NCBI GenBank assembly: GCA_016205145.1
Contig: JACQJH010000001.1
Location: forward strand, 450,001-482,000
Direction: 5' to 3'
From: Candidatus Iainarchaeum sp.
Lineage (GTDB): Archaea; Iainarchaeota; Iainarchaeia; Iainarchaeales; JACQJH01
DNA length: 32,000 nt
Position 1 is the first letter of the stretch, and each line of letters begins with the position of its first letter. The notes below the pieces were generated by a model. It had not been told where the DNA came from and made no database searches. It saw only the letters and a program-made list of their open reading frames with translations. Shown here in pieces: positions 506 to 17,548 of the stretch. Both the position numbers and the translations under genes were made by a program.

Positions 506-685
506 TGCGCCCGCCGGGATTCGAACCCGGGTCATGACCTTGTTCCGCACGGAATGTCGTCCTTTACAGCAGGAATTTTTGCTGGGGTTTACTCGGCGTA
601 TTGCAAAAGCAATACGCCTTGGTTTCGAACCCGCCGGACGAAACCGGCGTGGGAAGGTCAGATGCTACCATTACACCACAGGCGC
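506..685 (-). tRNA. tRNA-Gly (anticodon CCC) interrupted by a 109-nt intron
   Basis: Minus-strand cloverleaf folded by hand. Acceptor GCGCCTG/CGGGCGC (7 bp, one G-U). D-arm GTGT-AATGGTA-GCAT. Anticodon stem TGACC/GGTCA. Loop TT-CCC-A-A. Variable region TGAC. T-arm CCGGG-TTCGAAT-CCCGG. Discriminator A. No encoded CCA. The mature length would be 71 nt. Confidence 0.9.
541..649 (-). other. tRNA intron at canonical position 37/38 with a bulge-helix-bulge motif
   Basis: A central 4-bp helix (TTCC, nt 32-35, paired with GGAA at the intron 3' end) is flanked by 3-nt bulges CA|C and CA|A. The intron interior folds into several hairpins, including CGCCGG-TTTCGT-CCGGCG, GGCGTATTGC-TTTT-GCAATACGCC and CAGCA-N8-TGCTG. 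Confidence 0.8.
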
Positions 686-2000: not shown

Positions 2001-2031
2001 TTGCCTTAATAATTGTGTTTGCCTTAATAAT
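2001..2031 (+). promoter_or_regulatory. tandem 13-bp direct repeat TTGCCTTAATAAT (period 18) upstream of the DsbA-like operon
   Basis: Copies at 2001-2013 and 2019-2031, which is 59-89 nt upstream of ATG 2090. Each copy contains a TATA-like TTAATAAT. More A/T-rich sequence lies at 2051-2075. Confidence 0.4.
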
Positions 2032-2089
2032 GTTTCTGCAAAAATATCTGTTAAAAACTTTAAAATAATTTTTGGAAAGGGGGAGTTTG

Positions 2090-2920
2090 ATGACAAAACT
2101 TGGGGAAATGGACGCAAAATCTTCTGCGCAGATTCCAAACAGCTTGGTTCTCGCGGCAAGCATATTTATTTCGGCGCTGATTTTATCGGCATCTGTCCTG
2201 ATGGTGGGCAATTCCATTACAACTGAAATTTCAAAGCTTTCAGGCCTGGCGCTTGCGCCGGCAAATGCAGGCGGAACAGGAACCCAAGAGCAAAACGTTC
2301 CTTCGCCCGCGCAGGCTGCGCCTTCTCCTGAGCCGGCGGCGCCCGAAATTTCGCTGAAAACGGTTTCAGGCAATGCAGCCGGAGTCATGGGCGAGGACAA
2401 TGCGCCGGTTACAATCGTGGAATATTCCGATTTCCAGTGCCCGTTCTGCAGGCGCCATTACACTGAAACGCACCAGCAGCTGATAGACAATTACGTGAAG
2501 ACCGGCAAGGCAAAGCTTGTTTTCAAGGATCTGCCTTTGGACTTCCATCCTTCGGCTTCAATGGCCGCGAACGCGGCAAGGTGCGGCGCGGAGCAGGGAA
2601 AGTTCTGGGAAGCGCATGACGCAATCTTTGACATGCAGCAGGCAAAGGATCCCAGCGGGGGAACCGTGCAGTTTTCTGCGCAGGACGTCAAGGATGCCGT
2701 CGCGAAGATTTCCGGAATCGACGCAACAAAGTTCAATTCGTGCGTTGACAGCAGCAAGTATGCAAGCGATGTGAAGGCAAGCTACACCGAAGGCTTTTCC
2801 ATCGGCATAAACGGCACGCCGAGCTTTGTCATCGGACCGACGGACGGCAAGGGCCAGATTGTCGTTGGGGCGCAGCCTTTCGCGACATTCAAGGCGGTCG
2901 TAGACGGGTATTTGGGCTGA
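2090..2920 (+). CDS. membrane-anchored DsbA-family thiol:disulfide oxidoreductase (CPFC active site)
   Basis: Contains the motif EYSDFQCPFCRRHY and the DsbA helical insert (FHPSA...ARCGAEQGKFWEAHD). It has an N-terminal TM and a Pro/Ala-rich linker. I chose ATG 2090 because GGGGGAG lies 4 nt upstream; the track start 2072 is an alternative. Confidence 0.85.
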   Translation: MTKLGEMDAKSSAQIPNSLVLAASIFISALILSASVLMVGNSITTEISKLSGLALAPANAGGTGTQEQNVPSPAQAAPSPEPAAPEISLKTVSGNAAGVMGEDNAPVTIVEYSDFQCPFCRRHYTETHQQLIDNYVKTGKAKLVFKDLPLDFHPSASMAANAARCGAEQGKFWEAHDAIFDMQQAKDPSGGTVQFSAQDVKDAVAKISGIDATKFNSCVDSSKYASDVKASYTEGFSIGINGTPSFVIGPTDGKGQIVVGAQPFATFKAVVDGYLG

Positions 2921-2989
2921 AACCCAAATACCCCACTTTCTTTCTTTTCATTTTTTTGCGGGCTGGTGCAATTGGATTTTTTTGATTCC

Positions 2990-3517
2990 ATGAACGCGAA
3001 AACCGCGCATCTTTCCAGAGCTTTCCGCATTGTGTTTTCCCGGCCCAAATATTCGCTTCTTGCCATTTTTCTTGCCATGGCTCTTTTTTTGGGTGTAAAC
3101 TTTCTTGTCAACTGGCGCCTGCTTTCGGGTTTCGTGCTTGGAAACTTTCCGCTGTCAAACAAAATCACGGTCCTTTCCGGATTAGCGCAGGGAAGCCTGC
3201 TAAACAACACGACTGAAACTTTTTTTTCCTTCGCCGTCGTGTCATTGCTAATCGGCGTGAACGTTTCGCTTTTCGCCTATCGCATCAGGCATTCGGGCTT
3301 GGACAAAAAGGCGGGCGCGAGCGGCATTCTGGGCGGGTTTTTCGGGCTGTTTGCCGCGGGCTGCACGGCCTGCACGCTTTCGCTTGTGGCATTTTTCGGT
3401 TTCGCGGGATTGTTTGCGCTGCTGCCTTTCAGGGGCTTTGAAGTGTGGGCATTGGGAATCGCGGTCCTCATGTTGAGCATTTACTGGAATTCGAAAAGCA
3501 TCTGCGGAGTCTGCTAG
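2990..3517 (+). CDS. 4-TM membrane protein, CxxC paralog 1 (TM3 GCTACT, C-terminal SICGVC)
   Basis: Four hydrophobic segments, a basic TM2-TM3 loop (YRIRHSGLDKK), an intramembrane CTAC and a terminal CGVC. It is a paralog of 8247-8717 and 11225-11701. The start is ATG 2990 or GTG 2966. Confidence 0.75.
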   Translation: MNAKTAHLSRAFRIVFSRPKYSLLAIFLAMALFLGVNFLVNWRLLSGFVLGNFPLSNKITVLSGLAQGSLLNNTTETFFSFAVVSLLIGVNVSLFAYRIRHSGLDKKAGASGILGGFFGLFAAGCTACTLSLVAFFGFAGLFALLPFRGFEVWALGIAVLMLSIYWNSKSICGVC

Positions 3518-3529
3518 CAGTTCGGGGGA

Positions 3530-4096
3530 ATGCGCATGGGCCTGACAAAACACGAAAGGAAACAGCTGAAAAAAACGGAACGGCTTGAAAGCGAAAGGAC
3601 CCTTGGCGAAAAAAAGCGGAAGGAAAATTTCCTGAAAAACGCGGGCATGGCAATCCTTGCAATCGCGGTTGTCGCGGCAATCGCCTTTTTTGCGTTGCAG
3701 GCAAATGCCAACAGGCCCAAACTGGACACGCGCGGCATTTCCTTTCCGTTGGTGAACGTGCACTGGCACGCCACGCCCCGCATTTTTTTGTGCGGCGGGG
3801 AAAAGTTGATTCCGACGCCGCCTGAAACAAATCCTTTGCTGCACACGCATGAGGACAGGCTCATCCACATCGAAGGCAGCGTTTCCGGGCCGGAGCAGAT
3901 AACCCTGGAAAGGTTTTTTGACGGCATCGGCATAAAGTTTTCTTCAACCGGAATCTGGGGCAAAAGGAACGGCGACACCTGCGAAAACACGGGCAAGGCG
4001 GGAAAGGTTTCAATGAAGGTCAACGGTTCCGCAAACACTGAGTTCCAGAATTTTGTGCCAAAGGACGGCGACGTGATAGAAATTCGTTTTGAATAG
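3530..4096 (+). CDS. membrane-anchored exported protein with HWH / HTHED motifs (unknown function, possible metal site)
   Basis: 188 aa with a K/E-rich N-terminus, one TM, then VNVHWHATPRIFLCGG...LLHTHEDRLIHIEG...VNG...DGDVIEIRF. GGGGG precedes ATG 3530/3536. Confidence 0.7.
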   Translation: MRMGLTKHERKQLKKTERLESERTLGEKKRKENFLKNAGMAILAIAVVAAIAFFALQANANRPKLDTRGISFPLVNVHWHATPRIFLCGGEKLIPTPPETNPLLHTHEDRLIHIEGSVSGPEQITLERFFDGIGIKFSSTGIWGKRNGDTCENTGKAGKVSMKVNGSANTEFQNFVPKDGDVIEIRFE

Positions 4097-4106
4097 GCGT
4101 TGTGAC

Positions 4107-4301
4107 ATGAATAAAGTGAAACAAACCGCGTTGTTCACCTGCCCGGAATGCGGCGCAAAATCGGAAATAGCGGTTCCAACCGGCAGGTGCCTTGCCTTTC
4201 ACGAATGCGTGGCATGCCATAAAATCATCGCGGCAAAAAAATCCTGTTGCGTCATCTGCGACTACTCCGACAAGAAGTGCCCTGTTTCAGCAAAACACTG
4301 A
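4107..4301 (+). CDS. small Cys-rich protein resembling the GDCCVxC-domain family (10 Cys in 64 aa)
   Basis: Sequence MNKVKQTALFTCPECG...FHECVACH...KKSCCVICDYSDKKCP. It lies 10 nt after the previous stop. Confidence 0.6.
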   Translation: MNKVKQTALFTCPECGAKSEIAVPTGRCLAFHECVACHKIIAAKKSCCVICDYSDKKCPVSAKH

Positions 4302-4364
4302 CTGGCCGCACTTTTGATTGTTTGGCTTTTTTTTGGCGCTCAGGGGCTGTTCCGCTTTTTCCAC

Positions 4365-4411
4365 ATGGTTTCAACAACGGTTATCTATGGTTTCAGCCGC
4401 ATTGTTTGCAT
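4365..4411 (+). promoter_or_regulatory. shared promoter/operator module, copy A (ATGGTTTCAAC-N11-ATGGTTTCAGC-N7-TTTGCAT)
   Basis: It aligns colinearly, with no indels and 37/47 identity, to 10681-10727. The first spacer contains a TATA-like TTATCTAT. It lies 42-88 nt upstream of ATG 4453. Confidence 0.55.
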
Positions 4412-4452
4412 CAGAGCCTGATTCAGGCAATGTTTTTGCGGAGGAGACGGAA

Positions 4453-5130
4453 ATGCAGGGTTGTTGCGGGGAAGGGCACAAGTCCGGTTCCCATAAGTCT
4501 GGTTCGGCTGGCCAGCAAGCGGAATTCAAAACCAGTGCCGGCGGCAAAAAGCTGGGTTTTGGAAAAACCGCATTGACTGTGGTTTTGGCCTTGGCTGTTG
4601 TAGCAGGACTGCTGTTTTTCCTTCGCCCCGGCTCGACTGGACAGGTGTCCGCAACCGCGACGGGCAATACTGTCGGTGCTGTGGCGCCGGGTTTTGAGTT
4701 GAAGGACATTGCCGGAAACAGCGTGAAGCTGAGCGATTTCAAGGGCAGGGCTGTCATACTTTTTTTCAACGAGGGCGGAATGTGCTATCCTTCGTGCTGG
4801 AACCAGATAAAGGCTCTGGCAACGGATGAAAGGCTTAACAACGAAAACGTGGCGTCTTTCTCCGTGGTGGTTGACAACACTTCGGACTGGGAGAAAATCA
4901 CGGCTCACGTGCCCGGCTTTTCGCAGTCGGGCCTGCTCTTCGACACTTCAAAGGTTGTTTCGTCAAGTTACGGGGCGCTGAACATGCCGTCTTCGATGCA
5001 TGGCGGCATGATGCCGGGGCACACATATTATATCATCGGAAAGGACGGCAAAATAAAGTTCATTTTCGACGACCCGCAGATGGGCGTGAGGAACGACCTG
5101 CTTGCCGCTGAAATAGCAAAGCTGGTTTGA
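4453..5130 (+). CDS. membrane-anchored thioredoxin-fold (redoxin/TlpA-like) protein with an N-terminal MQGCCGEGH tail
   Basis: APGFELKDIAGNSVKLSDFKGRAVILFFNEGGMCYPSCW is a redoxin-type beta-alpha-beta with the Cys pair spaced CxxxC. It has one TM. I chose ATG 4453 because GGAGGAG lies 6 nt upstream and the promoter module would otherwise fall inside the ORF. Confidence 0.75.
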   Translation: MQGCCGEGHKSGSHKSGSAGQQAEFKTSAGGKKLGFGKTALTVVLALAVVAGLLFFLRPGSTGQVSATATGNTVGAVAPGFELKDIAGNSVKLSDFKGRAVILFFNEGGMCYPSCWNQIKALATDERLNNENVASFSVVVDNTSDWEKITAHVPGFSQSGLLFDTSKVVSSSYGALNMPSSMHGGMMPGHTYYIIGKDGKIKFIFDDPQMGVRNDLLAAEIAKLV

Positions 5131-5155
5131 CGGCTGGATTGTTTTTGGTGGTGGC

Positions 5156-6034
5156 GTGGGCGAACTGCTTTTAGGCGCGTCAATAATAACCGCTTTTGTG
5201 GCGGGAGTCGCGGCATTGTTCGCGCCGTGCTGCATTACCGTGCTCTTGCCCGCCTACCTCGGCTCGGTTTTCAGGCAGATGCGCACGGTTTTCCTCATGA
5301 CTTTCGTTTTCTTCCTGGGCCTGCTCGCGGTTTTCCTGCCGCTCGGCCTCGGCTTCGCGGCGCTCGGCGAAGCGTTCAGGCAGTTTCACGACGTCATTTT
5401 CGTCGGCGGAAGCGTTTTCCTCATAGTGCTTGGCGCCTCGATGCTTTTGGGAAAGCACTTTTCAATGCCATTTGCACCGCGCCCGTCTCCAAAAGTTACT
5501 GGTGCGGTTTCGGTTTTCGCGCTCGGCGTGTTCTCCGGCATAGCGACGCTTTGCTGTGCGCCCGTGCTTGCCGGAGTGCTGGCGCTTTCGATAATGCCGG
5601 GTTCGGTTTTCTGGGGCGGAGTCTACTCGCTGGCTTACGTGCTTGGCATGACGATTCCGTTGTTCGTAATTGCCTTCGCGCTTGACAAGTCGGATGCCCT
5701 TGAAAAAATCCGGCTGCTCAACAGGACCGTCGAATACGGCTTCGGCGGAGAAAAAATCAGCCTGCTTGCATCCGAAATGGTTGCAGCGTTGATGTTCATC
5801 GGAATGGGCTTGCTGACGATTTACTTTTTCATGACCGGGCAGCTTGCACAAAATTCCGGCTTCCAGGTTTCCACGAACGTGATGCTTGCAGGAGTGGCGG
5901 ATTTTGCCTCGAAGTATTTTTCGTGGGCACCGCCGGTTGCATTGGCGGGCGCGGTTGCGCTGATTTTGGCCGGCCTGGCGTTCATTGCCTTCAAAGAGAA
6001 GCATGGCCGGGGAAACGAAAAAAGGGAATCCTGA
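5156..6034 (+). CDS. CcdA/DsbD-family transmembrane thiol-disulfide (or thiophilic metal) transporter
   Basis: Polytopic, with two pseudo-repeats: FAPCCITVLLP (C25, C26) and TLCCAPVLAG (C133, C134). GTG start with GGTGGTGG upstream. It directly follows the redoxin gene. Confidence 0.75.
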   Translation: MGELLLGASIITAFVAGVAALFAPCCITVLLPAYLGSVFRQMRTVFLMTFVFFLGLLAVFLPLGLGFAALGEAFRQFHDVIFVGGSVFLIVLGASMLLGKHFSMPFAPRPSPKVTGAVSVFALGVFSGIATLCCAPVLAGVLALSIMPGSVFWGGVYSLAYVLGMTIPLFVIAFALDKSDALEKIRLLNRTVEYGFGGEKISLLASEMVAALMFIGMGLLTIYFFMTGQLAQNSGFQVSTNVMLAGVADFASKYFSWAPPVALAGAVALILAGLAFIAFKEKHGRGNEKRES

Positions 6035-6050
6035 TGGGAGGGATGAAAAC

Positions 6051-6260
6051 GTGATTGCAAAAATAATCGAAAGCGCAAAGCGCAACCATCTCGCGCAGAT
6101 GGCAATCTGCTGCCTCTTGCCGGTGCTGCTGATAATCGCGTTGCAGCTTTTGGGTTACACGGGTTTCTGGGTTTATGCCCTGGCCCTCGCTTTGTGCATC
6201 GGCTCGCACATTGCAATGGCGGCTATTGGCGCGAAAAAAGAGGGGCAGTCATGCCATTAG
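6051..6260 (+). CDS. small 2-TM protein resembling DUF2933 (metal-resistance-associated)
   Basis: Sequence HLAQMAICCLLPVLLIIALQLL...LALCIGSHIAMAA...SCH. GTG 6051 is preceded by GGGAGGGA at 6 nt. ATG 6003 is an alternative start. Confidence 0.5.
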   Translation: MIAKIIESAKRNHLAQMAICCLLPVLLIIALQLLGYTGFWVYALALALCIGSHIAMAAIGAKKEGQSCH

Positions 6261-6376
6261 ACTTAGGAAAGCACCGCGGCTGGCTGGAAAACGCCTTCTG
6301 GCTTCTCGTGCTCGCAGTCGCATACATTGCAATGCAAAAAGCAATGCATCCCGGCTGGACGGTTTTCGGAATCTGA
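6251..6376 (+). CDS. 41-aa single-TM peptide
   Basis: ATG 6251 overlaps the end of the previous ORF, with AGAGGGG 5 nt upstream. The hydrophobic core is AFWLLVLAVAYIAM. Confidence 0.35.
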   Translation: MPLDLGKHRGWLENAFWLLVLAVAYIAMQKAMHPGWTVFGI

Positions 6377-6464
6377 ATCCGCCGGGTGTATTTAGCCTGA
6401 TTTGGAAAAACTAATATAAATGCCGCTGCGCATCCATTAAAAACGCAGGAGGGCGGGATTAATC

Positions 6465-8189
6465 ATGGCGGGATTTGATGGCAGGACTGTCATTGGCTTG
6501 GCTTTGGTGGCCGTAATCGTGTTTGGGGCGGCGTTTTACATTGGCACATCCGGAAATTCCGGAATGCGTTCAGAGACGCGGCCGGCCGGAAGCGCGGCCG
6601 GGCAAACGGGCGCGGCATTCCCTTCCGGTGAATTGTCCGCCGGCGACAGGGCCATGATGGAGCACTGCAAGTCCATGCCGCAAATGCCGGGGTGCGAAAA
6701 ATTCGCCGGTCAGGAAGCCGCCGCAAATGGCGGTGCGGGTGCAAACGCCGGTTACTCTGATTCAGTTGCCGGGCTTTCCGCGGCAGGCGGAACCGCGGTT
6801 TATGATGCGAAAGACGGCGGAAAAATAACCCTGTCAGCGTCGGCCGTCAAAAAAACCGTTGCCGGCACGGAAGTCAGGATGCTTGCATACAACGGCCAGA
6901 TTCCGGGACCCACGATAAGAGTGAAACAGGGAAGCTCTCTGGAAGTGGAATTCATAAACGGCCTTGACTCCGAAACGACTGTGCACTGGCACGGCGTGAG
7001 AGTAAAAAACGATTTTGACGGCGTTCCGGGCGTGACGCAAAAGCCGGTCAAGCCCGGGGAAAAGTTTGTCTACCCGCTGGAGTTTCCGGACGAGGGCATA
7101 TACTGGTATCATCCGCACATGAGAGAGGACTACCAGCAGGAGCTCGGGCTTTACGGCAACATCATCGTCGAGCCGTCCGATGAAGGCTCTTACAACAAGG
7201 TCAACCGCGAAATGACGCTTGCGCTTGACGACATTCTGATGGAAGGCAATGGCATTGCCGCGTTCTCCGCCGATTTTGCGACGCATTCCCTGATGGGAAG
7301 GTTCGGGAACGTGATGCTGGTCAACGGCAGTGACAAATTTGAAATGGCCGCGCTGAAAGGCGAAACTGTGAGGTTTTTCGTCACGAATGCCGCGAACGCA
7401 AGGACATTCAACTTGGTTTTCGGGGGATTGAAGTTGAAGGTTGTCGGCGCGGACAGCGGAAAGTATGAAAAAGAATTTTTCGCGGACTCGGTTGTGGTGG
7501 CGCCGTCGGAAAGGTACGTTGTGGAAGTGCTGTTTGACGGGGAGGGAACATACAACATCCTCAATTCGACGCCTGAAGGAAAAACGGTTCTCGGCAAAAT
7601 AGCCGTGTCGGGCCGGCAGGCGGAAGAGGATTATTCCAAGGAGTTTTTTGAAACAATGGAAAATTCCCGGGTTGCTGACAGCATTTCCGGCATGAGGCGG
7701 TATTTTGACAAGCCCGCGGACCATGAAATAAGAATCGGCGTGGACCTGATGGGCATGAGTCATGGCAGCATGGCGATGGCTCAGGGAACCGGCGGCATCG
7801 AGTGGGAGGACGAAATGCCGCAAATGAACCTGGCCATGAACAGCAGGATAATGGAATGGCAGTTCATTGACGTGAAAACCGGGAAAAAGAACGAGGGCAT
7901 AAGCTATGAGTGGAAAAAAGGCGACAAAATCAAGTTGAGGATTTTCAACGACCCGGATTCCGCGCACCCCATGCAGCACCCGATCCATTTGCACGGCCAA
8001 AGGTTCCTGGCCATAAGCAGTGACGGGGTGGAAAGCGAAAACCTGGCGTGGAAGGACACGGTTCTGGTCCCGTCGGGTTCCACGGCGGACATTCTTGTGG
8101 ATGTCTCGAATCCCGGAAAATGGATGCTGCACTGCCATGTCCCGGAACACATGGAAAGCGGAATGCACACGACGGTAAACGTAATATGA
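6465..8189 (+). CDS. multicopper oxidase (CueO/CopA-like cuprous oxidase), N-terminally membrane-anchored
   Basis: All four MCO copper motifs are present: HWHG, WYHPH, HPIHLHG and HCHVPEHMESGM. There are Met-rich segments (MMEHCKSMPQMPGC; MGMSHGSMAMAQG...MPQMNLAMNSRIM). GGAGGGCGGG lies upstream of the ATG. Confidence 0.92.
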   Translation: MAGFDGRTVIGLALVAVIVFGAAFYIGTSGNSGMRSETRPAGSAAGQTGAAFPSGELSAGDRAMMEHCKSMPQMPGCEKFAGQEAAANGGAGANAGYSDSVAGLSAAGGTAVYDAKDGGKITLSASAVKKTVAGTEVRMLAYNGQIPGPTIRVKQGSSLEVEFINGLDSETTVHWHGVRVKNDFDGVPGVTQKPVKPGEKFVYPLEFPDEGIYWYHPHMREDYQQELGLYGNIIVEPSDEGSYNKVNREMTLALDDILMEGNGIAAFSADFATHSLMGRFGNVMLVNGSDKFEMAALKGETVRFFVTNAANARTFNLVFGGLKLKVVGADSGKYEKEFFADSVVVAPSERYVVEVLFDGEGTYNILNSTPEGKTVLGKIAVSGRQAEEDYSKEFFETMENSRVADSISGMRRYFDKPADHEIRIGVDLMGMSHGSMAMAQGTGGIEWEDEMPQMNLAMNSRIMEWQFIDVKTGKKNEGISYEWKKGDKIKLRIFNDPDSAHPMQHPIHLHGQRFLAISSDGVESENLAWKDTVLVPSGSTADILVDVSNPGKWMLHCHVPEHMESGMHTTVNVI

Positions 8190-8246
8190 GCGGCTGCCCG
8201 GAACCGGTTTTAATAACTGCGTTGCGGATTCATTCCGTGGCATAAA

Positions 8247-8717
8247 ATGCGAAAATGGTGGCAAGTGGACAAAAAAATAAAATTCCTGTTGGTTGGGGCG
8301 GGGCTTTCAATTCTGCTTTTCATAATCATGGGAACGCCCACGGCCCTCGTGCCCAACCCATTCATTCACTACAAGAGGATGGTTGCCGCGGCATGGTTGG
8401 ACTATTTTTTTCTCGCCTCAACCTCGATAATGCTTGCGGCATTGATTTCGCTGAAACTGTATTTCAGGTCGGGGCGCGGCCTCGGCGCAAAAGAAATCGG
8501 CGGGGGCGCGCTGGGCTTTCTTGCGTTCAGCTGCCCGATTTGCAATGCTCTTCTCGTGGCTTTGCTCGGCGGCGCGACGATAATGGCGTTCGTGGAGCCG
8601 TTGAGGCCGCTGTTTGGAGTCGTGTCGATTGCGATTTTGGGTTGGCTTATTTATGGCGCGCTGAAATGCGGGGGATGCAATGGCGCCGCAGGCCGGCACG
8701 GCATGAAAATTAATTAA
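8247..8717 (+). CDS. 4-TM membrane protein, CxxC paralog 2 (TM3 SCPICN, C-terminal KCGGCNG)
   Basis: Same architecture as 2990-3517. Cys96/99 lie in TM3 and Cys141/144 at the C-terminus. It starts 57 nt after the MCO stop. Confidence 0.75.
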   Translation: MRKWWQVDKKIKFLLVGAGLSILLFIIMGTPTALVPNPFIHYKRMVAAAWLDYFFLASTSIMLAALISLKLYFRSGRGLGAKEIGGGALGFLAFSCPICNALLVALLGGATIMAFVEPLRPLFGVVSIAILGWLIYGALKCGGCNGAAGRHGMKIN

Positions 8718-8756
8718 TCTGCTTGCATTTACATACAATCTGTTGCGGTGCTTGGA

Positions 8757-9455
8757 ATGGCGTTTCCTTTGAACCCCTGGCTTTTCGGCTCGGCCGCCCT
8801 GCTGTTGTTGTGGCTGGCCATATGGCTTTTCAGGCCCGCTTTGCGCAGGGAAATGCTTTTGGTCAGCCTTTTCACCGCGCCTTTGGGTCTGACGGAACCG
8901 CTTTTTGTGCCCGAATACTGGACTCCGCCTTCGCTGTTCAACCTTGCCGCCACAACGGGCTTTGACATTGAAAGCATAGTCTTCTGCTTTGCCGCCGGGG
9001 GAATAGCGGCGGTCATCTACGAAATCCTGGTGAAATCGAGGCACAGTGAAATGTCCATGAATGAAATGCGTTCTAAACGGCACAGGTTCCACAAAATCGC
9101 GCTCGCCTCTCCCGCAATCGTTTTCGTGCCCCTGTACCTTTTTTCCGGCCTGAACCCGATATATGTTTCAATAATTGCGCTGTTTGCCGGCGCAATGGCG
9201 ACTGTCGTGTGCAGGCCGGATTTGAAGAAACCGGTCTTAACCGGAGGAACAGTATTTTTGCTCATCTATTTCTTTTTCTTCCTGTTTTTGAGCGTGGCAT
9301 TCCCGGATTTTGTGCCGAACGCGTGGAATTTTTCGGCCATCAGCGGCATTCTTGTTTTCGGCGTCCCTTTTGAGGAGCTGCTGTTCGCGCTTTCCTTTGG
9401 AATGGCGTGGGCGGGCCTTTACGAGCATTTTTTCTGGAAAAAACTGGTTCGTTAG
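8757..9455 (+). CDS. polytopic membrane protein, possibly of the lycopene-cyclase-domain (CrtYc/d-like) family
   Basis: About 7 hydrophobic segments, with repeated motifs FDIESIVFCFAAGG and VPFEELLFALSFG that resemble the PxEE(x)LF signature. The functional assignment is weak. GTG 8748 is an alternative start. Confidence 0.5.
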   Translation: MAFPLNPWLFGSAALLLLWLAIWLFRPALRREMLLVSLFTAPLGLTEPLFVPEYWTPPSLFNLAATTGFDIESIVFCFAAGGIAAVIYEILVKSRHSEMSMNEMRSKRHRFHKIALASPAIVFVPLYLFSGLNPIYVSIIALFAGAMATVVCRPDLKKPVLTGGTVFLLIYFFFFLFLSVAFPDFVPNAWNFSAISGILVFGVPFEELLFALSFGMAWAGLYEHFFWKKLVR

Positions 9456-9485
9456 GCCAATCAGGCAACCGGCAAAGGCTTCCGG

Positions 9486-9911
9486 TCAGTGCGCGCCGCC
9501 GCCCTTGAAAGTCCGCGCGCAGTGCCTGCAGCAGAATTTCAGGGTTTTTCCGTTTATTTTTTCCGTGTGGCCGCCTTCATAGACCATGCAGGCGCAGTGC
9601 GCGCACTGCGAAAGCTTCGGTTCCACGGCAAGGTCTATGAGGCCGCCGAACCTGTGCAGCATCGACTTGCAGAACGCCTTGCCTTCCGGCGTCAGAGCGT
9701 AAACCTTTTTTTCCCTCGCGCCCTCTGATTTGACCCGGATGTATTTTGCCTTTTCAAGTTTTGCGAGGAAAGGGTAGATCTGGCCGGGTGAAACCCTGCT
9801 TTCGAGCCTTTCGCTTATCTCCTTTATGAGCTCGTAGCCGTGCCTGGGGCCGTCGCACAGAAGAAGCATGCAATAGAATTTGGCCATGTTTGTGATCCTG
9901 ATTTCTTTCAT
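9486..9911 (-). CDS. PadR-type winged-helix regulator fused to a C-terminal TRASH metal-binding domain
   Basis: The N-terminal half (LLLCDGPRHGYELIKEI...GQIYPFLAKLEKAKYI...YALTPEG) is PadR-like. The C-terminus CAHC-x20-CCRHC fits the TRASH pattern C-x2-C-x19-22-C-x3-C. Confidence 0.85.
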   Translation of the reverse strand: MKEIRITNMAKFYCMLLLCDGPRHGYELIKEISERLESRVSPGQIYPFLAKLEKAKYIRVKSEGAREKKVYALTPEGKAFCKSMLHRFGGLIDLAVEPKLSQCAHCACMVYEGGHTEKINGKTLKFCCRHCARTFKGGGAH

Positions 9912-9952
9912 TGCGGTCAGGCGGATTTATCTGGGAAAACGTTTAAATATTT

Positions 9953-9973
9953 ATATATCTAAATTTGATATAT
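9953..9973. promoter_or_regulatory. palindrome ATATATC-N7-GATATAT in the divergent promoter region
   Basis: Perfect 7-bp inverted repeat embedded in TATA-like sequence. It lies 42-62 nt from the PadR-TRASH ATG and 70-90 nt from ATG 10043. Confidence 0.45.
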
Positions 9974-10042
9974 CTGTTTTCTGGGCATCATTTTTCTGAG
10001 CGTCATTTGGGCTGGCAACAATTTTTTTTGGGGTGGTTTGCA

Positions 10043-10630
10043 ATGGTGGAAAAATCGGGTTTGCTGGCATTGGTTGTATTGGCGGGTTTAATCGCGTTGC
10101 CTGTTGCAATGGCGCAGGGTTCGGATGATTTTGCGCAGGCGAAGGCGCTGATCGACAGGAATGCGTCCTGCGGCAGCCTGAGCAGCGAACAGCTTGAACT
10201 GATCGGCGATTATGTGATGGAGCAGATCCATCCCGGCGAAGCCCACGAATATGTGGAATCGATGATGGGCGGCGAGGGCTCGGATAGCCTGAAACGGGCG
10301 CACATTGCCATGGCTTACAGGTTCTACTGTGCAGGCTTAGGTTCTGGGTTGAACGCAAACAGCCCGTATTATGGCGTAATGGGCGGCTATGGGATGATGG
10401 GTGGCATGATGTACGGCAACTATGGCGGGATGATGGGTTCTGGCAATGCCTATTCCACTTATGGGCTTATGGGATACGGCGGCGGAACCGCAAATTATCC
10501 TGGAATGATGGGCTATAATGCGTCAACCGGCGGCCTTGGCCTGCTTACGCAGGTCTTGTTTGTGGTGGCGCTTGGTCTCGCAGTTCTGTTCCTTGGCATT
10601 AAAGTCTTCGGGCAATTTCAAAAGCGGTGA
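10043..10630 (+). CDS. secreted Met/Gly/Tyr-rich protein with a C-terminal TM anchor (putative Cu(I)-binding)
   Basis: Signal-like N-terminus LLALVVLAGLIALPVAMAQG. A helical domain carries HPGEAHEYVESMMGGEG. A low-complexity stretch reads YYGVMGGYGMMGGMMYGNYGGMMGSG...PGMMGY. The tail is hydrophobic. Confidence 0.7.
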   Translation: MVEKSGLLALVVLAGLIALPVAMAQGSDDFAQAKALIDRNASCGSLSSEQLELIGDYVMEQIHPGEAHEYVESMMGGEGSDSLKRAHIAMAYRFYCAGLGSGLNANSPYYGVMGGYGMMGGMMYGNYGGMMGSGNAYSTYGLMGYGGGTANYPGMMGYNASTGGLGLLTQVLFVVALGLAVLFLGIKVFGQFQKR

Positions 10631-10680
10631 TTGAGGATTTGGGGTTGAATGTCCTGCGGGTTGTATGCCGGCCCGGAACA

Positions 10681-10727
10681 AAAGGTTTCAGCAATGCCTA
10701 TTTATGGTTTCAGCAGGAATATTTGCA
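10681..10727 (+). promoter_or_regulatory. shared promoter/operator module, copy B (AAGGTTTCAGC-N11-ATGGTTTCAGC-N7-TTTGCAT)
   Basis: It is colinear with 4365-4411. The first spacer contains a TATA-like TATTTAT. It lies 70-116 nt upstream of ATG 10797, the first gene of the cop operon. Confidence 0.55.
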
Positions 10728-10796
10728 TAGTTGTGTTTTTTTGCATCCGGTCTTTTTTATGAATTTTATGGGTGAAGGCTCTAAAGTGGTGGTCAG

Positions 10797-11228
10797 ATGA
10801 ATGAGGTTAAAGTCCAGCGTGTTTTCCTGTTGCTTGTGTTAGGCGCCCTGGTCGTGTTCGGCGGAATGGTTCTGTTTTGGTTTGGCGCTAATGCAGCGCC
10901 CGCCAGATCGGCATCGGTAAATAATCAGGGTATTGTTGCCGGAGGGAACGGCCAGGCACAGGACATTTACATCAGGGCGCTTTCAAGCGGAACCTATGAC
11001 AAAAGCGAGGTCACGGTAAAGAAAGGCGTGCCGGTCAGACTGCATTTTTCCGCTGACCCTGGCGCGGGCTGCGGAAGGTATCTGGTGCTATACGGCCTGA
11101 ACGTCAATGCGCTTTCCAAGAACGGCGAAGAAGCGGTTGTCGACTTCACGCCGCAACAGGAAGGCAGCTTTGAATACAATTGCGGTATGAGAATGTTCAA
11201 ACCCGGAACATTGAAGGTTTTGGCATGA
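10797..11228 (+). CDS. membrane-anchored cupredoxin-like domain protein
   Basis: One TM followed by VTVKKGVPVRLHFSADPGAGCGRYLV...VDFTPQQEGSFEYNCGMRMFKPGTLKV. This is the typical cupredoxin_1-type C...CGM.M pattern seen in cop operons. Confidence 0.75.
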   Translation: MNEVKVQRVFLLLVLGALVVFGGMVLFWFGANAAPARSASVNNQGIVAGGNGQAQDIYIRALSSGTYDKSEVTVKKGVPVRLHFSADPGAGCGRYLVLYGLNVNALSKNGEEAVVDFTPQQEGSFEYNCGMRMFKPGTLKVLA

Positions 11229-11701
11229 GCAGGCTTGAAGCTTTGGCCTTGGTGTTGTCGGAGCGCAGTCAGCTCGCAATATTTCTTGCGGCGTTTGCCG
11301 TGCTTTTGCCTTTGCTGGCAGTCAGCTCGGCAATAATTTCGCCGGTGGGTTTTGCGTTCAATCCTTTGGCTGAACCGCTTGGAATCGCTTTGACAATCGT
11401 CATTGCAATCCTGATGGGCCTGAACCTGACGGTCCTGTTGCATGCCCACGCACGCAATGCAAATGCAAAAAAGGGGACTGTCCTGTTCGGCGGCCTGGCG
11501 GCAACGTTTGCCACTGCCTGCCCTGTTTGCCCGCCGACATGGATTGTCCTGCTCGGCTTCGGCTCGGCCGCGGGCTTTCTTTCTGGAACCGGGATTTTCA
11601 TTGCAATTGGCAGCATAGTCTTGCTTTCATTGGCTCTTTACAATTCTTTGGGTTGCGCAGACGGAAACTGCGGGGTGGACAAGAATGGAAAAAATGATTA
11701 A
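11225..11701 (+). CDS. 4-TM membrane protein, CxxC paralog 3 (TM3 ACPVCP, C-terminal GCADGNCG)
   Basis: ATG 11225 overlaps the cupredoxin stop (ATGA). Cys99/102 lie in TM3 and Cys144/149 at the C-terminus. Same architecture as the other two paralogs. Confidence 0.75.
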   Translation: MSRLEALALVLSERSQLAIFLAAFAVLLPLLAVSSAIISPVGFAFNPLAEPLGIALTIVIAILMGLNLTVLLHAHARNANAKKGTVLFGGLAATFATACPVCPPTWIVLLGFGSAAGFLSGTGIFIAIGSIVLLSLALYNSLGCADGNCGVDKNGKND

Positions 11702-11888
11702 AGTGAAAGGCATGCATTGTAAGTCATGCGAAATCCTTGTCGCGGACTCCGTGTCTGAAATCAGCGGCGTGGAAAGCGTCAAGGCGGACAGCAGGAAGGG
11801 AACTGTTGTGGTGAATGTCCGGGATGCCGGGATTCTCGGCAGGGTGAAAGCCGCGATTGAAAAGGAAGGCTACAAGGTGGAAAACTGA
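11685..11888 (+). CDS. copZ: CopZ-like heavy-metal-associated (HMA) copper chaperone
   Basis: 67 aa with a GMHCKSC motif and a ferredoxin-like HMA length. GGGGTGGA lies 5 nt upstream. Confidence 0.88.
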   Translation: MEKMIKVKGMHCKSCEILVADSVSEISGVESVKADSRKGTVVVNVRDAGILGRVKAAIEKEGYKVEN

Positions 11889-12808
11889 TGGAATTCGAAC
11901 TTGAACTTGGCGGAATGTCCTGCGGCTCATGCGAGCGCATAATCGAAAAGGTTGCCGAGAAAGCCGGCGCGGAAGTCAAGGAAATCGACTCGCGCAAAGG
12001 CAGGGTCACAATCGTTTCCGAGGAATCCAAAATAGCCGGAATAAGGGAAGAGCTTGCCAAGCGCGGCTTTGCCGAAAAGGGCAGCAGGGAAGACGTGGGC
12101 AGGGGCGACCTGAAAAACGTTGTTGGCTACATTTTGGCAGTGCTGTCAATCCAGCCGCACGTCGAAGAGGAAGCCAGGCTCGTCAACCACGCCATTGCGT
12201 CCGCGATTATTTTGGCTGGGCTGAACATTCTGGCTTACCTGTTTTTTGTGCAGGGCCTGGAGAACGGCGAAAAGTACCTTCCATTCCTTGCATTGGCGAT
12301 TGTTGCGTCAATAACATCCGTTTTCGCGTACCTTCACGCCAAATGCTACCGTAAAATCATGTCCTGCCAGAACGGCATGATGGTCGGAATGACCATGGGC
12401 ATGGTTCCGGGCTTCATGGTCGGCGCAATCATTGCCGCGACAAACGGAATGTTTCTTGGCAGCGTGGCCGGAATTCTGACCGGCGCATGGCTTGGCCTGA
12501 AGAGCGGAAAATGCTGCGGCGTAATGGGCGCAATGGAAGGAGTCATGGCCGGCCTGATGTCCGGTTTGATGGGGCCGATGACAGTGATCATGACCCTCAA
12601 CGACAACATGCTCGTTCTGCTTTACCTGATTTTCGGAATCTCTGTTTTTTTGCTCGGCGGCCTGAGCTACATGCTGTACCGCGAGGAAGGCGAAACCCCG
12701 GTTGCGAACACAAAGCTGCCGGAATTCATTGTTCTCGGCATTGCGTTCAATCTTGTGCTGCTGGCGATAATGCTTTTTGCGGTTAAGGGGCCATTGAGGT
12801 TCGTGTGA
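11888..12808 (+). CDS. HMA domain fused to a Met/Gly/Cys-rich ~7-TM membrane domain (unknown family)
   Basis: The N-terminal 62 aa form an HMA domain with GMSCGSC. After a charged linker come TM segments including [18 protein letters not shown] and [30 protein letters not shown] overlap joins it to copZ. Confidence 0.75.
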
Positions 12809-12818
12809 GGGCGATGGC

Positions 12819-15275
12819 ATGAAAAAAATCACAGTCGGCATTAAAGGCATGCATTGCGCTTCCTGCGCCACGATAATCGAGCGTCGCCTCAAAAAAGTTG
12901 AAGGCGTGAAGGATGTCTCTGTCAGCGTCGCGGCAAACAGGGCGGCGATCGAATTTGATGAGGGCATTGCGGGCATTGAACAGTTTGGAAAGGCAGTGGA
13001 AAGTGCAGGGTACGAACTCGTCCAGCCGCAGGGGCAGGATTCCGGCGATGCGAAGATAACAATGCATGTAAAGGGCATGGATTCGCCGCATTGTGCGGGC
13101 ATTGTCGGGAATGCGCTCAAGGGAACCGCTGGAGTGAAAAAATTCGACCTCAGCTTCCAGAATGCCTCGGCAATGGTTGAATTCGATGCCTCCATCACCG
13201 GCTTTGATAAAATAAAGGCTTCGATTGCAAGGGCAGGCTATGATGCGGAACTGCTTGTCGGGGAGGAAACAGTGGACCAGGAGAAGGCCGCACGCGATAA
13301 AGAAATCGCGGAATTGAAGCGCAGGCTCGTTTTTTCGGCATTGCTGACCGTGCCGGTTGTCCTGCTTGCATTGCCGGAAATGCTGAAAACTGTTATGGCA
13401 TTCGAGTACCCGCAGTTCATAATGCAGAACATGGCTGCATTGCAATTGCTGTTTTCAACGCCGGTGATGTACCTTAACAGGGACATGTTTGTGAGGGGCT
13501 TCAGGGGGCTGTTGAATAACATGCCGGGCATGGACAGCCTTGTCGCTTTGGGCGTCGGGACAACCTATGCTTACAGCGCAATCGTGGCCCTGCGCATCAT
13601 TGGCGGAGTCATGTATTTTGAAACCGCTGCTTTGCTTCTCACGTTCATATTGCTTGGCAGGTACCTTGAGGCGATTGCCAAAGGAAAGACTTCCGAGGCA
13701 ATCAAGCGCCTTGTAGGGCTTGCGCCGAAAACCGCAATCGTGGTCAGGGCAGGAAAAGAGGTTGAAATTCCGATCAAGGAAGTTGTTGTCGGGGACATTG
13801 TCATTGTGAAGCCGGGCAGCAAGATTCCGGTTGACGGCGTCATAGTCGAAGGCGAAAGCAGCATTGACGAGAGCATGATTACAGGGGAGAGCATGCCCGT
13901 GCACAAGCGAAAAAATGACATTGTGATCGGCGGGACAATCAACGGCAATGGCTCTTTCAGGTTCAGGGCGACAAAAATCGGCAAGGACACAATGCTTGCG
14001 CAGATAATCCGTTTGGTGGAGGACGCGCAGGCAAGCAAGGCGCCGATCCAGAAGCTTGCAGACACTGTCGCAGGCTATTTTGTGCACGCAGTAATAGTGC
14101 TTGCATTGCTTGCCTTCGCTTACTGGTATTTCGTGGCAGGCCAGCCGTTTCTTTTCGCGCTCACAATCCTTGTTTCAACGCTTGTGATTTCCTGTCCTTG
14201 CGCAATGGGCCTTGCAACCCCGACAGCGGTCATGATTGGAACCGGCAAGGGCGCCGAGAACGGCGTGCTCATAAAAAACGCGGAGAGCCTTGAAATCCTG
14301 CATCAGGCCAAAACCTTTGTGTTCGACAAGACCGGCACAATCACCATGGGAAAGGCGTCGGTAACGGAAATCGTTCCGGTCGGAATCAAGGCAGCCGACC
14401 TTCTTTGCCTTGCGGCTTCCGCGGAAAAGAATTCCGAGCATCATTTAGCGCAGGCAATCGTGAAAAAGGCGAAGGAATCGAGGCTGAAAATTGCAGAACC
14501 GAAATCTTTCAAGGCGATTCCGGGGCATGGCGTCGAGGCAAAAGTCGGGGCGAAGAATGTTCTCATCGGAACTGTTGTCCTGATGAAAAAAAGCGGGGTC
14601 CGGATCGGAAACGATTTGGTTGGCAGGATGCAGTCGCTTGAAGAGCAGGGAAAAAGCGTTGTCCTTGTTTCGTCGGACGGAAAGCTTGTGGGAATGGTTG
14701 CGATTGCCGACACCATAAAAGAGCATGCTGCCGAGGCTGTAAGGCAATTGCAGGCAATGGGTTATGAAACCGTCATGATAACCGGCGACAATTCCCGCAC
14801 TGCAAACGCGATTGCAAAGCAGGCAGGCATTTCAAGGGTGCTGGCGCAGGTGCTTCCGTCGGACAAGGCCGCGGAAGTCAAGAAATTGCAGTTGAACGGA
14901 AGAAAGGTTGCCTTTGTCGGCGACGGCATAAACGATGCCCCGGCCTTGGCGCAGGCCGACATTGGAATCGCGATTGGCAGCGGCACCGACGTTGCGATTG
15001 AAAGCGGCGGAATAGTTTTGGTGAAAAGCGATTTGCGCGACATTGTGACGGCGGTAAAGCTTAGCAAATACACTCTCGGCAAAATAAAGCAGAATCTGTT
15101 CTGGGCTTTCGGCTACAATGCGGTCGGCATTCCGCTCGCGGCAGGCGCATTCTATCCTTTCACCGGCTGGCTTTTGTCGCCGGTCATAGCCGGAGCGGCA
15201 ATGGCTTTCAGCTCGGTAAGCGTTGTTTCGAACAGCCTGCTCATGCGCGGATGGAAACCGGATAAAAAGGTTTGA
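12819..15275 (+). CDS. copA: Cu(I)-translocating P1B-type ATPase
   Basis: 818 aa. HMA1 has GMHCASC. HMA2 is degenerate (GMDSPHCAG). It carries the TM CPC motif ([11 protein letters not shown]), DKTGT, MITGDN and GDGINDAP. Confidence 0.95.
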
Positions 15276-16241: not shown

Positions 16242-16281
16242 TTTGGTCCCCCGGTTTTTCCCGTGCGATTTTCGCGGATTT

Positions 16282-17364: not shown

Positions 17365-17447
17365 TTCAAAATCCCCCCTAATTTCTGTTATATGCCTGAT
17401 AAAAGACTGATATTTAGCCGACAACTTTTTTTAAAGCGTGCGTTCGG

Positions 17448-17476
17448 AGCCGGTTTCGTCCGGCTGGTTCGATGAC
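17448..17476 (+). repeat. inverted copy of the 5' part of the tRNA-Gly intron (hairpin AGCCGG-TTTCGT-CCGGCT plus GGTTCGA)
   Basis: 17449-17472 matches the reverse complement of 625-648 at 23 of 24 nt. The single mismatch is compensated by the base 5' of the hairpin (C-G becomes A-T). It lies in a 184-nt gap between two minus-strand genes. Confidence 0.7.
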
Positions 17477-17548
17477 GGGTATCTCGCGTTGCTCGATACC
17501 CATCTGCACTCAGCATTAAATGTTTCGGAGGCGTGCGACGGAGCCAGG

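Follow-up and report, generated by a model that had tools for sequence, protein, structure and literature searches.

A conserved copper and extracytoplasmic thiol island with MerT-like CPxC membrane proteins in the DPANN archaeon Candidatus Iainarchaeum

Candidatus Iainarchaeum sp. (assembly GCA_016205145.1) carries a gene island at positions 2072-15275 of the 32,000-nucleotide stretch analysed here (contig JACQJH010000001.1, 450,001 to 482,000; hereafter the window). Our analysis makes it likely that the island is a conserved modular DPANN system for copper and other thiophilic soft metals, and for the cysteines that such metals damage, in an envelope with a single membrane. In kind it is a metal-homeostasis island coupled to envelope thiol oxidoreductases, which is known from elsewhere, and the noteworthy part is a large uncharacterised family of MerT-like CPxC membrane proteins, represented in the island by three paralogs.

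DPANN archaea have tiny genomes, usually without a respiratory chain, and a lifestyle that relies on the cell surface. Archaeal copper homeostasis is mainly known from cop clusters of two to three genes, and to our knowledge the handling of disulfides and thiols in the DPANN envelope is essentially undescribed. The island shows that one DPANN lineage holds a large conserved modular toolkit that joins metal efflux and oxidation to extracytoplasmic thiol management, a counterpart of the connection between copper and Dsb proteins that has lately come to light in bacterial pathogens. It also gives the unannotated CPxC family a genomic context, a predicted partner for each copy and two candidate operators. 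In the literature on GDCCVxC proteins, DPANN copper and Dsb systems, MerT-like families and PadR-TRASH regulators, we found no description of the island, the CPxC family or the two promoter elements.

A six-frame listing of open reading frames (ORFs), with translation and Pfam and NCBIfam scans, placed 18 closely packed genes within 2072-15275, 17 of them on the + strand. A previous reading of the DNA from its letters (the sequence-only reading) had described about 20 genes over 13 kb, all but one on the + strand, and the identities that it gave largely agree with ours. It had also counted at least seven genes of unknown family; eight island products lack any Pfam family, even at E<=5. The sole gene on the - strand encodes a PadR-TRASH regulator (9486-9911). 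This gene and that of a Met-rich protein lie between units 3 and 4 of the four units into which the others fall: DsbA-like protein to GDCCVxC protein (unit 1), redoxin to 41-aa peptide (unit 2), oxidase to lycopene-cyclase-domain protein (unit 3) and cupredoxin to CopA (unit 4). Within units the gaps between genes range from -17 to 88 bp. Along the genes for cupredoxin, paralog 3, CopZ and a protein that fuses an HMA domain to transmembrane (TM) helices (HMA-TM), successive overlaps are 4, 17 and 1 nt.

Unrelated genes might have come to stand together by chance or as an artefact of assembly. Over 3851-18523, 4277-13913 and 9971-17312 the window is matched at 100% identity by three independent Logan assemblies (SRR12113383, -84 and -85), and chimeric junctions at 9.5 and 15.3 kb, which the sequence-only reading had proposed to check, are therefore excluded. 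A third possible junction, at 2.0 kb, lies outside the cover of these assemblies, and this, together with a lycopene-cyclase-domain gene that is unique to the lineage, speaks for an artefact. At about 2.0 kb there is no compositional break, and the first island genes (DsbA, paralog-1-like and HWH) are syntenic in relatives. Identity of the three assemblies over 3.85-18.5 kb, synteny of modules across many genomes, cis-elements shared among loci and the lack of a GC discontinuity leave the artefact explanation effectively refuted. Housekeeping genes flank the island: M42 aminopeptidase at one end, and a SerA-like protein, an aminotransferase and GlmS/GlmM/hexapeptide transferase at the other. 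A recent mobile origin is not suggested by any tRNA, integrase or change in GC at its borders.

A general enrichment of cysteine in the island was considered and rejected (1.72% Cys versus 1.74% in flanking genes). Per residue, CC (7 versus 3) and CxxC (14 versus 5) motifs reach roughly three times the density of the flanks. Recurring CC/CU motifs over a gene neighbourhood have been argued to indicate heavy-metal handling in a preprint on selenoprotein families (10.1101/2022.07.06.499078).

The paralog family and a scan of species-representative genomes led to related loci (numbered L001 onwards). One of them, L009, belongs to Candidatus Iainarchaeum andersonii SCGC AAA011-E11, and the others include Ca. 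Iainarchaeum metagenome-assembled genomes (MAGs), unclassified archaeal MAGs and one nanohaloarchaeon. The series DsbA, paralog-1-like, HWH is syntenic in L006, L009, L011, L012 and L013, and occurs without HWH in L002 and L015. Oxidase with paralog 2 and redoxin with CcdA are both found in L006. Paralog 2, PadR on the - strand and CopA stand together in L002, L003, L006, L011 and L015, and cupredoxin, paralog 3, CopZ and HMA-TM, with two small peptides, in L009. Relatives also have DUF302, DUF411 or additional Cys-rich proteins that are missing from the window. By these gene orders, the island is a lineage-wide modular feature whose modules are shuffled among genomes. Comparative genomics had been suggested as a check on the island, with scattered homologues of its unknown genes as evidence against it. 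The combination of copper and thiol genes recurs in at least six other DPANN lineages, and homologues of the unknown genes keep the same island context in DPANN relatives.

Some observations on the related loci are given in their own right. In L009 a MerA gene (L009:3-1358, - strand; TIGR02053, 445.6 bits, truncated at the contig end) adjoins the island, and an ArsR/SmtB regulator (L009:1342-1695, - strand) lies beside MerA and the homologous island. Exported proteins of relatives that are otherwise unrelated (L003:6056-7010 and 10461-11648; L006:429-1465 and 10455-11645) have short C-terminal tails in common, ...VPDMVGGC on two Cys-rich proteins and ...GAGACGV on the rhodanese fusion, and the latter tail also ends a paralog-2-type protein, P0008. 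These shared tails could be sorting, lipidation or metal-binding tags. A BlaI/CopY-type repressor (Penicillinase_R) and an M48 peptidase lie as a pair beside a CPxC gene or a DsbA cluster in an actinobacterium, L021 (Brevibacterium sediminis CP030797.1), and on a DPANN contig, at L002:5241-6323.

The three CPxC paralogs were characterised by BLASTP, profile and TM analysis.

2990-3517, + strand: paralog 1, MerT-like protein with four TM helices, CTAC in TM3 and C-terminal CGVC
8247-8717 (or start 8265), + strand: paralog 2, MerT-like protein with four TM helices, CPIC in TM3 and C-terminal CGGC
11225-11701, + strand: paralog 3, MerT-like protein with four TM helices, CPVC in TM3 and C-terminal CADGNC; the gene overlaps the stop of cupredoxin at one end and the start of CopZ at the other

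The three are indeed related, as the sequence-only reading had recognised, although remotely (23-29% identity, with BLASTP E values for the pairs of 0.004 to 8e-6). They are not orphans, and belong to a broad unannotated family with a MerT-like hairpin. Each has 150-175 aa and four hydrophobic helices, the third of which carries an invariant CxxC, as well as a conserved turn (EPLRP in the paralog 2 type) and a C-terminal Cys pair. By the positive-inside rule, this Cys pair is predicted to be cytoplasmic, as in MerT, together with the N-terminus and the loop that joins helices 2 and 3. Paralog 2 is 44-70% identical in L001-L015. A paralog-1-like gene follows DsbA in L002, L006, L009, L012 and L015, and paralog 3 is 36% identical in L009, where the order cupredoxin, paralog 3, CopZ is kept.

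A word-indexed search had found 30 relatives of the paralogs; the subsequent exhaustive profile search of 1.84 billion representatives gave 1,659 clusters (50% identity) at E<=1e-3 and 551 at E<=1e-10, spread across archaea and Actinobacteria. Members with a name come from the Actinobacteria Brevibacterium, Georgenia, Demequina, Enemella and Glutamicibacter, where they are annotated as 'hypothetical' or 'integral membrane' proteins, and the members listed have no precomputed Pfam domain, except one longer protein with an unrelated domain. The TM CxxC is present in all 291 members retrieved (CP[VI]C in 81%), and 285 of them have at least one further Cys that is predicted to be cytoplasmic.

For comparison with MerT, a reference sequence was checked against annotated plasmid genes (100% identity) and a small alignment of genuine MerT was built. 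With hhalign, the family alignment A3 matched MerT over 67 columns (probability 96.4%, E 1.2e-9), and the narrower DPANN-only alignment A4 matched it with a probability of 63%. Helix 3 with its CPxC is paired with MerT TM1 and its vicinal CC, EPLRP with EPYRP, helix 4 with TM2, and the C-terminal Cys with Cys76. Weak matches to Pfam MerT (PF02411) occur in 13 of 49 family members (best E 2.3e-5), none of them one of the three paralogs, and residues 101-141 of paralog 2 weakly match NCBIfam MerTP at MerT positions 19-59 (17.7 bits versus a cut-off of 180). An AF2 model of paralog 2 (predicted local distance difference test, pLDDT, 72) has no significant Foldseek match in the PDB (best E 6.3), and a search of PDB sequences with a hidden Markov model of the family gave spurious matches only and did not detect MerF. 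We judge from the profile alignments that the TM3-TM4 hairpin of the paralogs is homologous to MerT TM1-TM2. Because the paralogs lie under every curated MerT threshold and have a different architecture, they are not filed as MerT, and are taken as a distinct unannotated family of four TM helices that has the MerT Cys-relay hairpin.

The copper arm of the island consists of the following genes, with which one gene of uncertain place is listed.

6465-8189, + strand: three-domain multicopper oxidase, membrane-anchored, with a Met-rich N-terminal segment (Cu-oxidase_3, Cu-oxidase, Cu-oxidase_2)
10043-10630, + strand: Met/Gly/Tyr-rich secreted protein, C-terminally anchored, 8.2% Met (from sequence composition)
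10797-11228, + strand: cupredoxin-like protein, membrane-anchored, with conserved H, C, C, M and M (Cupredoxin_1, 1.6e-7)
11685-11888, + strand: CopZ-type HMA copper chaperone with GMHCKSC (HMA, 1.7e-12)
11888-12808, + strand: HMA-TM, a fusion of HMA with a Met/Cys-rich domain of about six TM helices (weak HMA match, 0.0019; GKCCG; 6.5% Met)
12819-15275, + strand: CopA, a Cu(I)-exporting ATPase of type P1B-1 that begins with two HMA domains (E1-E2_ATPase, 2.9e-63; Hydrolase; HMA twice)
8757-9455, + strand: lycopene-cyclase-domain polytopic membrane protein, 232 aa (PF18916, 2.1e-17)

The translation of the oxidase contains all four copper motifs, HWHG, WYHPH, HPIHLHG and HCHVPEHMESGM (HCHxxxHxxxxM). 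It has an N-terminal anchor in place of a twin-arginine signal and is 45-52% identical in L006, L012 and L013. The Met-rich protein is 45% identical at the equivalent position in L006 and 39% identical in L004, and the cupredoxin-like protein is 45% identical in L009. CopA has the motifs CPC, DKTGT, YN and MxxSS, and its homologues are 43-53% identical in L002-L006, L010 and L011 and 40% identical over a partial alignment in L015. By these signatures, CopZ to P1B-1 CopA is the predicted cytoplasmic Cu(I) route. The TM part of HMA-TM has no Pfam family; the N-terminal 102 aa of the fusion are 39% identical in L009, up to the contig end there.

The lycopene-cyclase-domain product had been described simply as a 7-TM protein. 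Its gene has no homologue in any related locus compared, and the window has no carotenoid genes. In relatives, the slot after paralog 2, which it occupies in the window, holds an exported rhodanese fusion of 394-396 aa. Its membership in the system is doubtful.

The thiol arm and the small membrane proteins beside it are as follows.

2072-2920, + strand: DsbA-like thioredoxin-fold protein, membrane-anchored, with CPFC (likely ATG at 2090; one N-terminal TM segment)
3536-4096, + strand: HWH/HTH protein, 186-188 aa, with an N-terminal TM helix and an extracytoplasmic beta-grasp domain
4107-4301, + strand: GDCCVxC-domain protein, 64 aa, 9 Cys (NCBIfam NF041374, 52.4 bits, cut-off 40)
4450-5130, + strand: AhpC/TSA-Redoxin-fold protein, membrane-anchored (gene callers' start 4387)
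5156-6034, + strand: CcdA/DsbD_TM membrane protein, 292 aa (Pfam DsbD_TM, PF02683, 2.2e-7, 30.9 bits versus a cut-off of 27.1)
6003-6260, + strand: small membrane protein, 69-85 aa (start 6003 or 6051), with ICC in a TM segment and C-terminal SCH
6251-6376, + strand: membrane peptide, 41 aa, called as a gene in the independent assemblies

The DsbA-like protein matches Pfam Thioredoxin_4 (1.1e-30) and DSBA (3.2e-15), and scores 150.8 bits, under the cut-off, against the NCBIfam Rcas_1661-type thioredoxin-like lipoprotein. Its homologues in L002, L006, L009 and L011-L013 are 39-44% identical.

The HWH protein matches nothing in Pfam or NCBIfam. A single-sequence search gave five homologues, and further ones came from tblastn on the fetched loci. 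H-W-H, H-T-H-x-D, H-I-E-G and two Cys are invariant (five His, one Asp and one Glu in all), and this set suggests a metal or ligand site. An AF2 model (pLDDT 81) consists of a TM helix and a beta-grasp domain. The Foldseek matches of this domain are the beta-domain of transcobalamin and a 'putative metal binding protein' similar to DUF4430 (E 8.8e-4 to 2e-2, TMt 0.51-0.58). The GDCCVxC family has a member that is annotated right after merT-merP on a Methylophaga plasmid, the one plasmid examined.

The redoxin matches Pfam AhpC-TSA (1.5e-15) and Redoxin (4.6e-9). It had been called TlpA-like, but its conserved motif is CYPSC (CxxxC) and not CxxC, and its scores against the TlpA and ResA families of NCBIfam are far under the cut-offs. 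It also has MPSSMHGGMMPGH and an N-terminal GCCGEGH tail, and the homologue in L006 (54% identical) keeps both CYPSC and MPSSMHGGMMPGH. There is no match to SCO1/SenC (PF02630) even at E<=5. Judged by its motifs, the CxxxC with the Met/His motif would suit a Sco-like chemistry rather than that of the TlpA/ScsD CxxC.

The DsbD_TM match of the CcdA-like protein is limited to residues 10-194, and the protein is hydrophobic throughout. Both canonical Cys sites are present but doubled (PCC in TM1 and LCCAP in TM4). The same CC pairs are found in the L006 homologue (L006:2867-3724, 57% identical), and single Cys in L004 and in L021 (Brevibacterium). For the small membrane protein at 6003-6260, a likeness to DUF2933 had been proposed, which no Pfam profile supports, that of DUF2933 included. 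Its homologues in L009 (Ca. I. andersonii) and L004 are 68% and 41% identical to it, and at the position equivalent to that of the 41-aa peptide L009 has an ORF that is 67% identical.

Two kinds of conserved promoter element accompany the island operons.

9486-9911, - strand: PadR-type winged-helix regulator (PadR, 1.2e-16) with a C-terminal TRASH-like Cys motif, CAHC-x20-CCRHC
9952-9974, + strand: candidate PadR-TRASH operator TATATATC-N7-GATATATC between the divergent genes, where a TTTAAATA box closely precedes it
4362-4411, + strand: element GGTTTCA-N15-GGTTTCA, copy 1, around a TATA-like box upstream of the redoxin-CcdA unit
10679-10728, + strand: element GGTTTCA-N15-GGTTTCA, copy 2, around a TATA-like box upstream of the cupredoxin-paralog 3-CopZ-HMA_TM-CopA unit

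The PadR-TRASH protein is 57-70% identical in L002, L003, L006 and L011, and a CopA operon adjoins it every time. The operator-like sequence TATATATC-N7-GATATATC occurs once in the window against an expectation of 0.02, and the layout TTTAAA-N4-GATATATC-N7-GATATATC is also found beside the PadR homologues of L006 (~12135-12160), L003 (~12110-12135), L002 (~10958-10983) and L011 (~9887-9910). The sequence GATATATC-N7-GATATATC is therefore probably the PadR operator. In relatives, the promoter with this operator is followed first by tiny CC-containing peptides and then by (Met-rich)-DUF302-CopA.

The tiny Cys-Cys-rich ORFs between the PadR operator and CopA lie at L003 ~12155-12195, L002 ~11000-11037 and L006 12181-12291. 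Among them are MNGGGGCCGGGR, MDGKKKRKNGCC and a 36-aa peptide with GCCGG...GCCGEGC, to which the GCCGEGH tail of the window's redoxin is similar. They may be leader or sensor peptides or mini-metallothioneins.

Copies 1 and 2 of the GGTTTCA element form a 50-nt repeat that is 78% identical. The element, which is conserved in four lineages, also lies upstream of island operons in L001/L003 (L003:5984), twice in L006 (409 and 9939) and twice in L009, where a weaker third copy (score 27) is found upstream of the cupredoxin operon (L009:4974, 6680 and 8113 in all). Scores with a position weight matrix of the element are 50-56, compared with a maximum of 16.5 over 20 shuffles. In relatives, a gene for a membrane-anchored winged-helix protein (DUF7343) adjoins it. 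A single PadR regulon was considered and rejected, as the operator was sought upstream of the other units and not found. Units 1 and 3 carry neither element. Because two distinct elements are conserved, the four units do not form a single regulon, and they imply two regulators or more. At 1985-2025, ahead of the DsbA-like gene, there is a tandem direct repeat of TTGCCTTAATAAT (two copies, period 18 nt) that is unlike both other elements.

Taken together, these features suggest the following scheme. Cu(I) bound to the TRASH cysteines would free PadR from its operator and derepress the Met-rich protein and, in relatives, CopA directly. A second regulator would act at the GGTTTCA-N15-GGTTTCA elements of the redoxin-CcdA and the cupredoxin-paralog 3-CopZ-HMA_TM-CopA units. 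CopA would export Cu(I), the oxidase would turn Cu(I) into Cu(II), and the Met-rich protein might serve as a buffer. CcdA would hand reducing power from the cytoplasm to the redoxin, which might keep extracytoplasmic cysteines, or its own Cu-binding CxxxC, reduced. Each CPxC protein would link its cytoplasmic Cys pair to the exported partner encoded just upstream (DsbA-like protein, oxidase or cupredoxin). We prefer, tentatively and with slightly less than even confidence, that the CPxC proteins exchange metal between CopZ in the cytoplasm and the exported partner, the metal being Cu(I), or Hg(II) if there is a MerA.

Metal transfer is suggested by the sole detectable homology of the family, to the Hg(II) transporter MerT, and by the constant place of the DPANN paralogs in copper islands. 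Paralog 3 is translationally coupled to cupredoxin upstream and to CopZ downstream, an arrangement that mimics MerP, MerT and NmerA. The neighbourhood of GDCCVxC and merT-merP, and of MerA and the island in Ca. I. andersonii, points in the same direction. The last two observations would also fit a mer-type system, in which the copper genes are co-located passengers, and Hg(II) is brought in by the MerT-like proteins and GDCCVxC to serve a MerA whose gene lies elsewhere. The MerT-like hairpin, the ArsR-type regulator beside MerA in Ca. I. andersonii and the listing of MerA for one Diapherotrites genome (PMC8261052) are consistent with such a system. However, MerA, MerB, MerP and MerR are all absent from the 32-kb window, the ATPase has the Cu(I) signature CPC/YN/MxxSS, and the multicopper oxidase, cupredoxin, Met-rich protein and TRASH regulator are hallmarks of copper. 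Most of the related loci that carry paralog 2 have CopA without MerA. A mer-type system is therefore improbable. The label 'copper' in the sequence-only reading should nevertheless be widened to thiophilic soft metals, as merA abuts the homologous island of Ca. I. andersonii.

The CPxC proteins might instead be transmembrane thiol-disulfide or persulfide relays, that is, quinone-independent analogues of DsbB/DsbD. Paralog 1 would then be the redox partner of the DsbA-like protein, and the island would serve chiefly oxidative folding, disulfide repair and cuproprotein maturation. In at least six loci over three DPANN lineages a paralog-1-like gene follows DsbA, often overlapping or nearly touching it, like DsbA-DsbB/VKOR pairs. 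The Brevibacterium CPxC member lies beside two DsbA-like genes and one DsbD_TM gene, and most bacterial CPxC members have a single cytoplasmic Cys, which would suit mixed-disulfide chemistry. The bacterial branch was surveyed through 150 neighbouring proteins, two genes either side, at 47 non-redundant metagenomic loci. The commonest neighbour families were MFS (12), rhodanese (11), DsbD_TM (6), pyridine-nucleotide-disulfide oxidoreductases (6), DsbA/Thioredoxin_4 (5), CsoR-type regulators (4), thioredoxin (3) and TauE (3); of these, rhodanese, DsbD_TM, DsbA, thioredoxin, the CsoR/CstR-type regulators and TauE are counted as enriched in favour of a thiol relay. The list of the 25 most frequent neighbour families includes neither HMA nor P-type ATPases. 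On the other side, the only homology detected is to a metal transporter, MerT, and the second Cys site is predicted to be cytoplasmic, on the reducing side, which excludes a DsbB-like oxidase unless the topology is inverted. Paralogs 2 and 3 come after cuproproteins and not after thioredoxin-fold proteins, paralog 3 is translationally coupled to CopZ, and a reductant channel of the CcdA type is already there. We regard a thiol relay, which would pass electrons in the manner of DsbD or DsbB, as a nearly equal alternative, held with slightly less confidence than metal transfer.

Several points weigh against the scheme above, and in particular against a metal relay. The neighbour profile of the bacterial branch favours thiol or persulfide chemistry over metal transport. 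With one membrane, import of Cu(I) followed by export through CopA would be futile; if metal transfer is the function, it is likelier to run outward, from cytoplasmic CopZ to load or feed the exported partners. The paralogs remain below all curated MerT thresholds, with four TM helices and not three. The match of the regulator to TRASH_HVO_1752_C (7.2e-5, 23.3 bits) is under the gathering cut-off of 27. The DUF7343 winged helix-turn-helix regulator was sought in the window and not found, which leaves the GGTTTCA element there without an assigned regulator. The lycopene-cyclase-domain protein has no obvious role in the scheme. The host archaeon is uncultured, and the copper response of the units is a prediction from sequence.

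It is also conceivable, although less likely than not, that the CPxC proteins are a hitherto unrecognised class of membrane cysteine relays, each of which wires a donor in the cytoplasm (CopZ or thioredoxin) directly to an exported protein of its own (DsbA-like protein, multicopper oxidase, cupredoxin or rhodanese). A new transmembrane relay for Cu(I) or electrons, if true, would bear on cuproprotein maturation and on oxidative folding without DsbB/VKOR-quinone systems. Organisms without quinones or respiratory chains would gain a way to metallate cuproproteins, or to form or reduce disulfides, outside the cell that is independent of ATP and quinones.

Outside the island, a full-length Rfam tRNA match of 180 nt at 506-685 (- strand, 43.5 bits), where ARAGORN found none, is probably an intron-containing archaeal tRNA. 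Downstream of the island, two ORFs at 26517-28394 (+ strand, 625 aa) and 30665-31465 (+ strand, 266 aa) have no Pfam family at E<=0.001.

Among known systems, MerT/MerP/MerA of Tn501/Tn21 is closest to the CPxC paralogs. Both have a TM helix with a Cys pair, which an EPxRP turn joins to another TM helix, and cytoplasmic cysteines after that, and the genes adjoin those of an exported metal-binding or CxxC partner and of a cytoplasmic HMA protein (CopZ here, NmerA in the Mer relay). MerT has about 116 aa and three TM helices, the first of which carries the Cys pair, whereas the paralogs have four TM helices, the hairpin at the C-terminal end and CPxC in place of the vicinal CC. The contexts also differ from that of Mer, being copper in DPANN archaea and rhodanese/Dsb in bacteria.

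The redoxin and its neighbours resemble Sco/TlpA-CcdA pathways in the anchored thioredoxin-fold protein with CxxxC, the nearby His motif, the CcdA neighbour and the cuproproteins downstream. They differ in that there is no SCO1/SenC profile match, no haem-copper oxidase is visible and the CcdA cysteines are doubled. The oxidase is similar to CueO-type multicopper oxidases in its three cupredoxin domains and four His-rich copper motifs.

The sequence-only reading had compared the thiol genes with scsBCD of Salmonella. In the Scs system (ScsABCD of Salmonella, Proteus and Caulobacter, taken with the CueO/CopA/CueP copper response) the logic is alike: an exported DsbA-like protein with CxxC, an anchored thioredoxin-fold protein and a DsbD-family membrane protein occur in association with copper tolerance, and in the island an efflux and oxidase arm is joined to the thiol trio. 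The island is nevertheless not an Scs locus. ScsB is a DsbD-family protein with eight TM helices and periplasmic alpha (double Ig) and gamma domains with CX2/3C, and ScsD has CX2C (PMC10907172); both ScsC and ScsB bind Cu(I) (PMC10907172, PMC8900818). The CcdA-like protein, proposed as the counterpart of ScsB, consists of the TM part only, without the alpha and gamma domains, and the redoxin lacks the CX2C of ScsD. The DsbA-like protein corresponds to ScsC, an exported DsbA/DsbG-like CxxC protein, at the level of fold only. ScsA is a small protein with a CX2C of the CLAC type that possibly lies within the membrane, and the CPxC proteins recall it in this idea only. In contrast to Scs, the thiol genes are physically joined to the efflux and oxidase genes in an archaeal host with a single membrane, the regulators are PadR-TRASH and a second factor rather than CpxRA/CueR, and three MerT-like proteins, a His-rich beta-grasp protein and a GDCCVxC protein are added.

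Archaeal cop clusters (copRTA/copMA of Sulfolobus/Saccharolobus and CopR of Pyrococcus furiosus; PMC7830388, PMC3595675) share with the island a P1B-1 CopA, a small metallochaperone and a TRASH sensor beside the pump. The DNA-binding domain of the sensor is of the PadR type in the island and of the Lrp/AsnC type in those clusters. The island has about 18 genes where those clusters have two to three, and its additions are the oxidase, cupredoxin and Met-rich protein together with an entire thiol branch.

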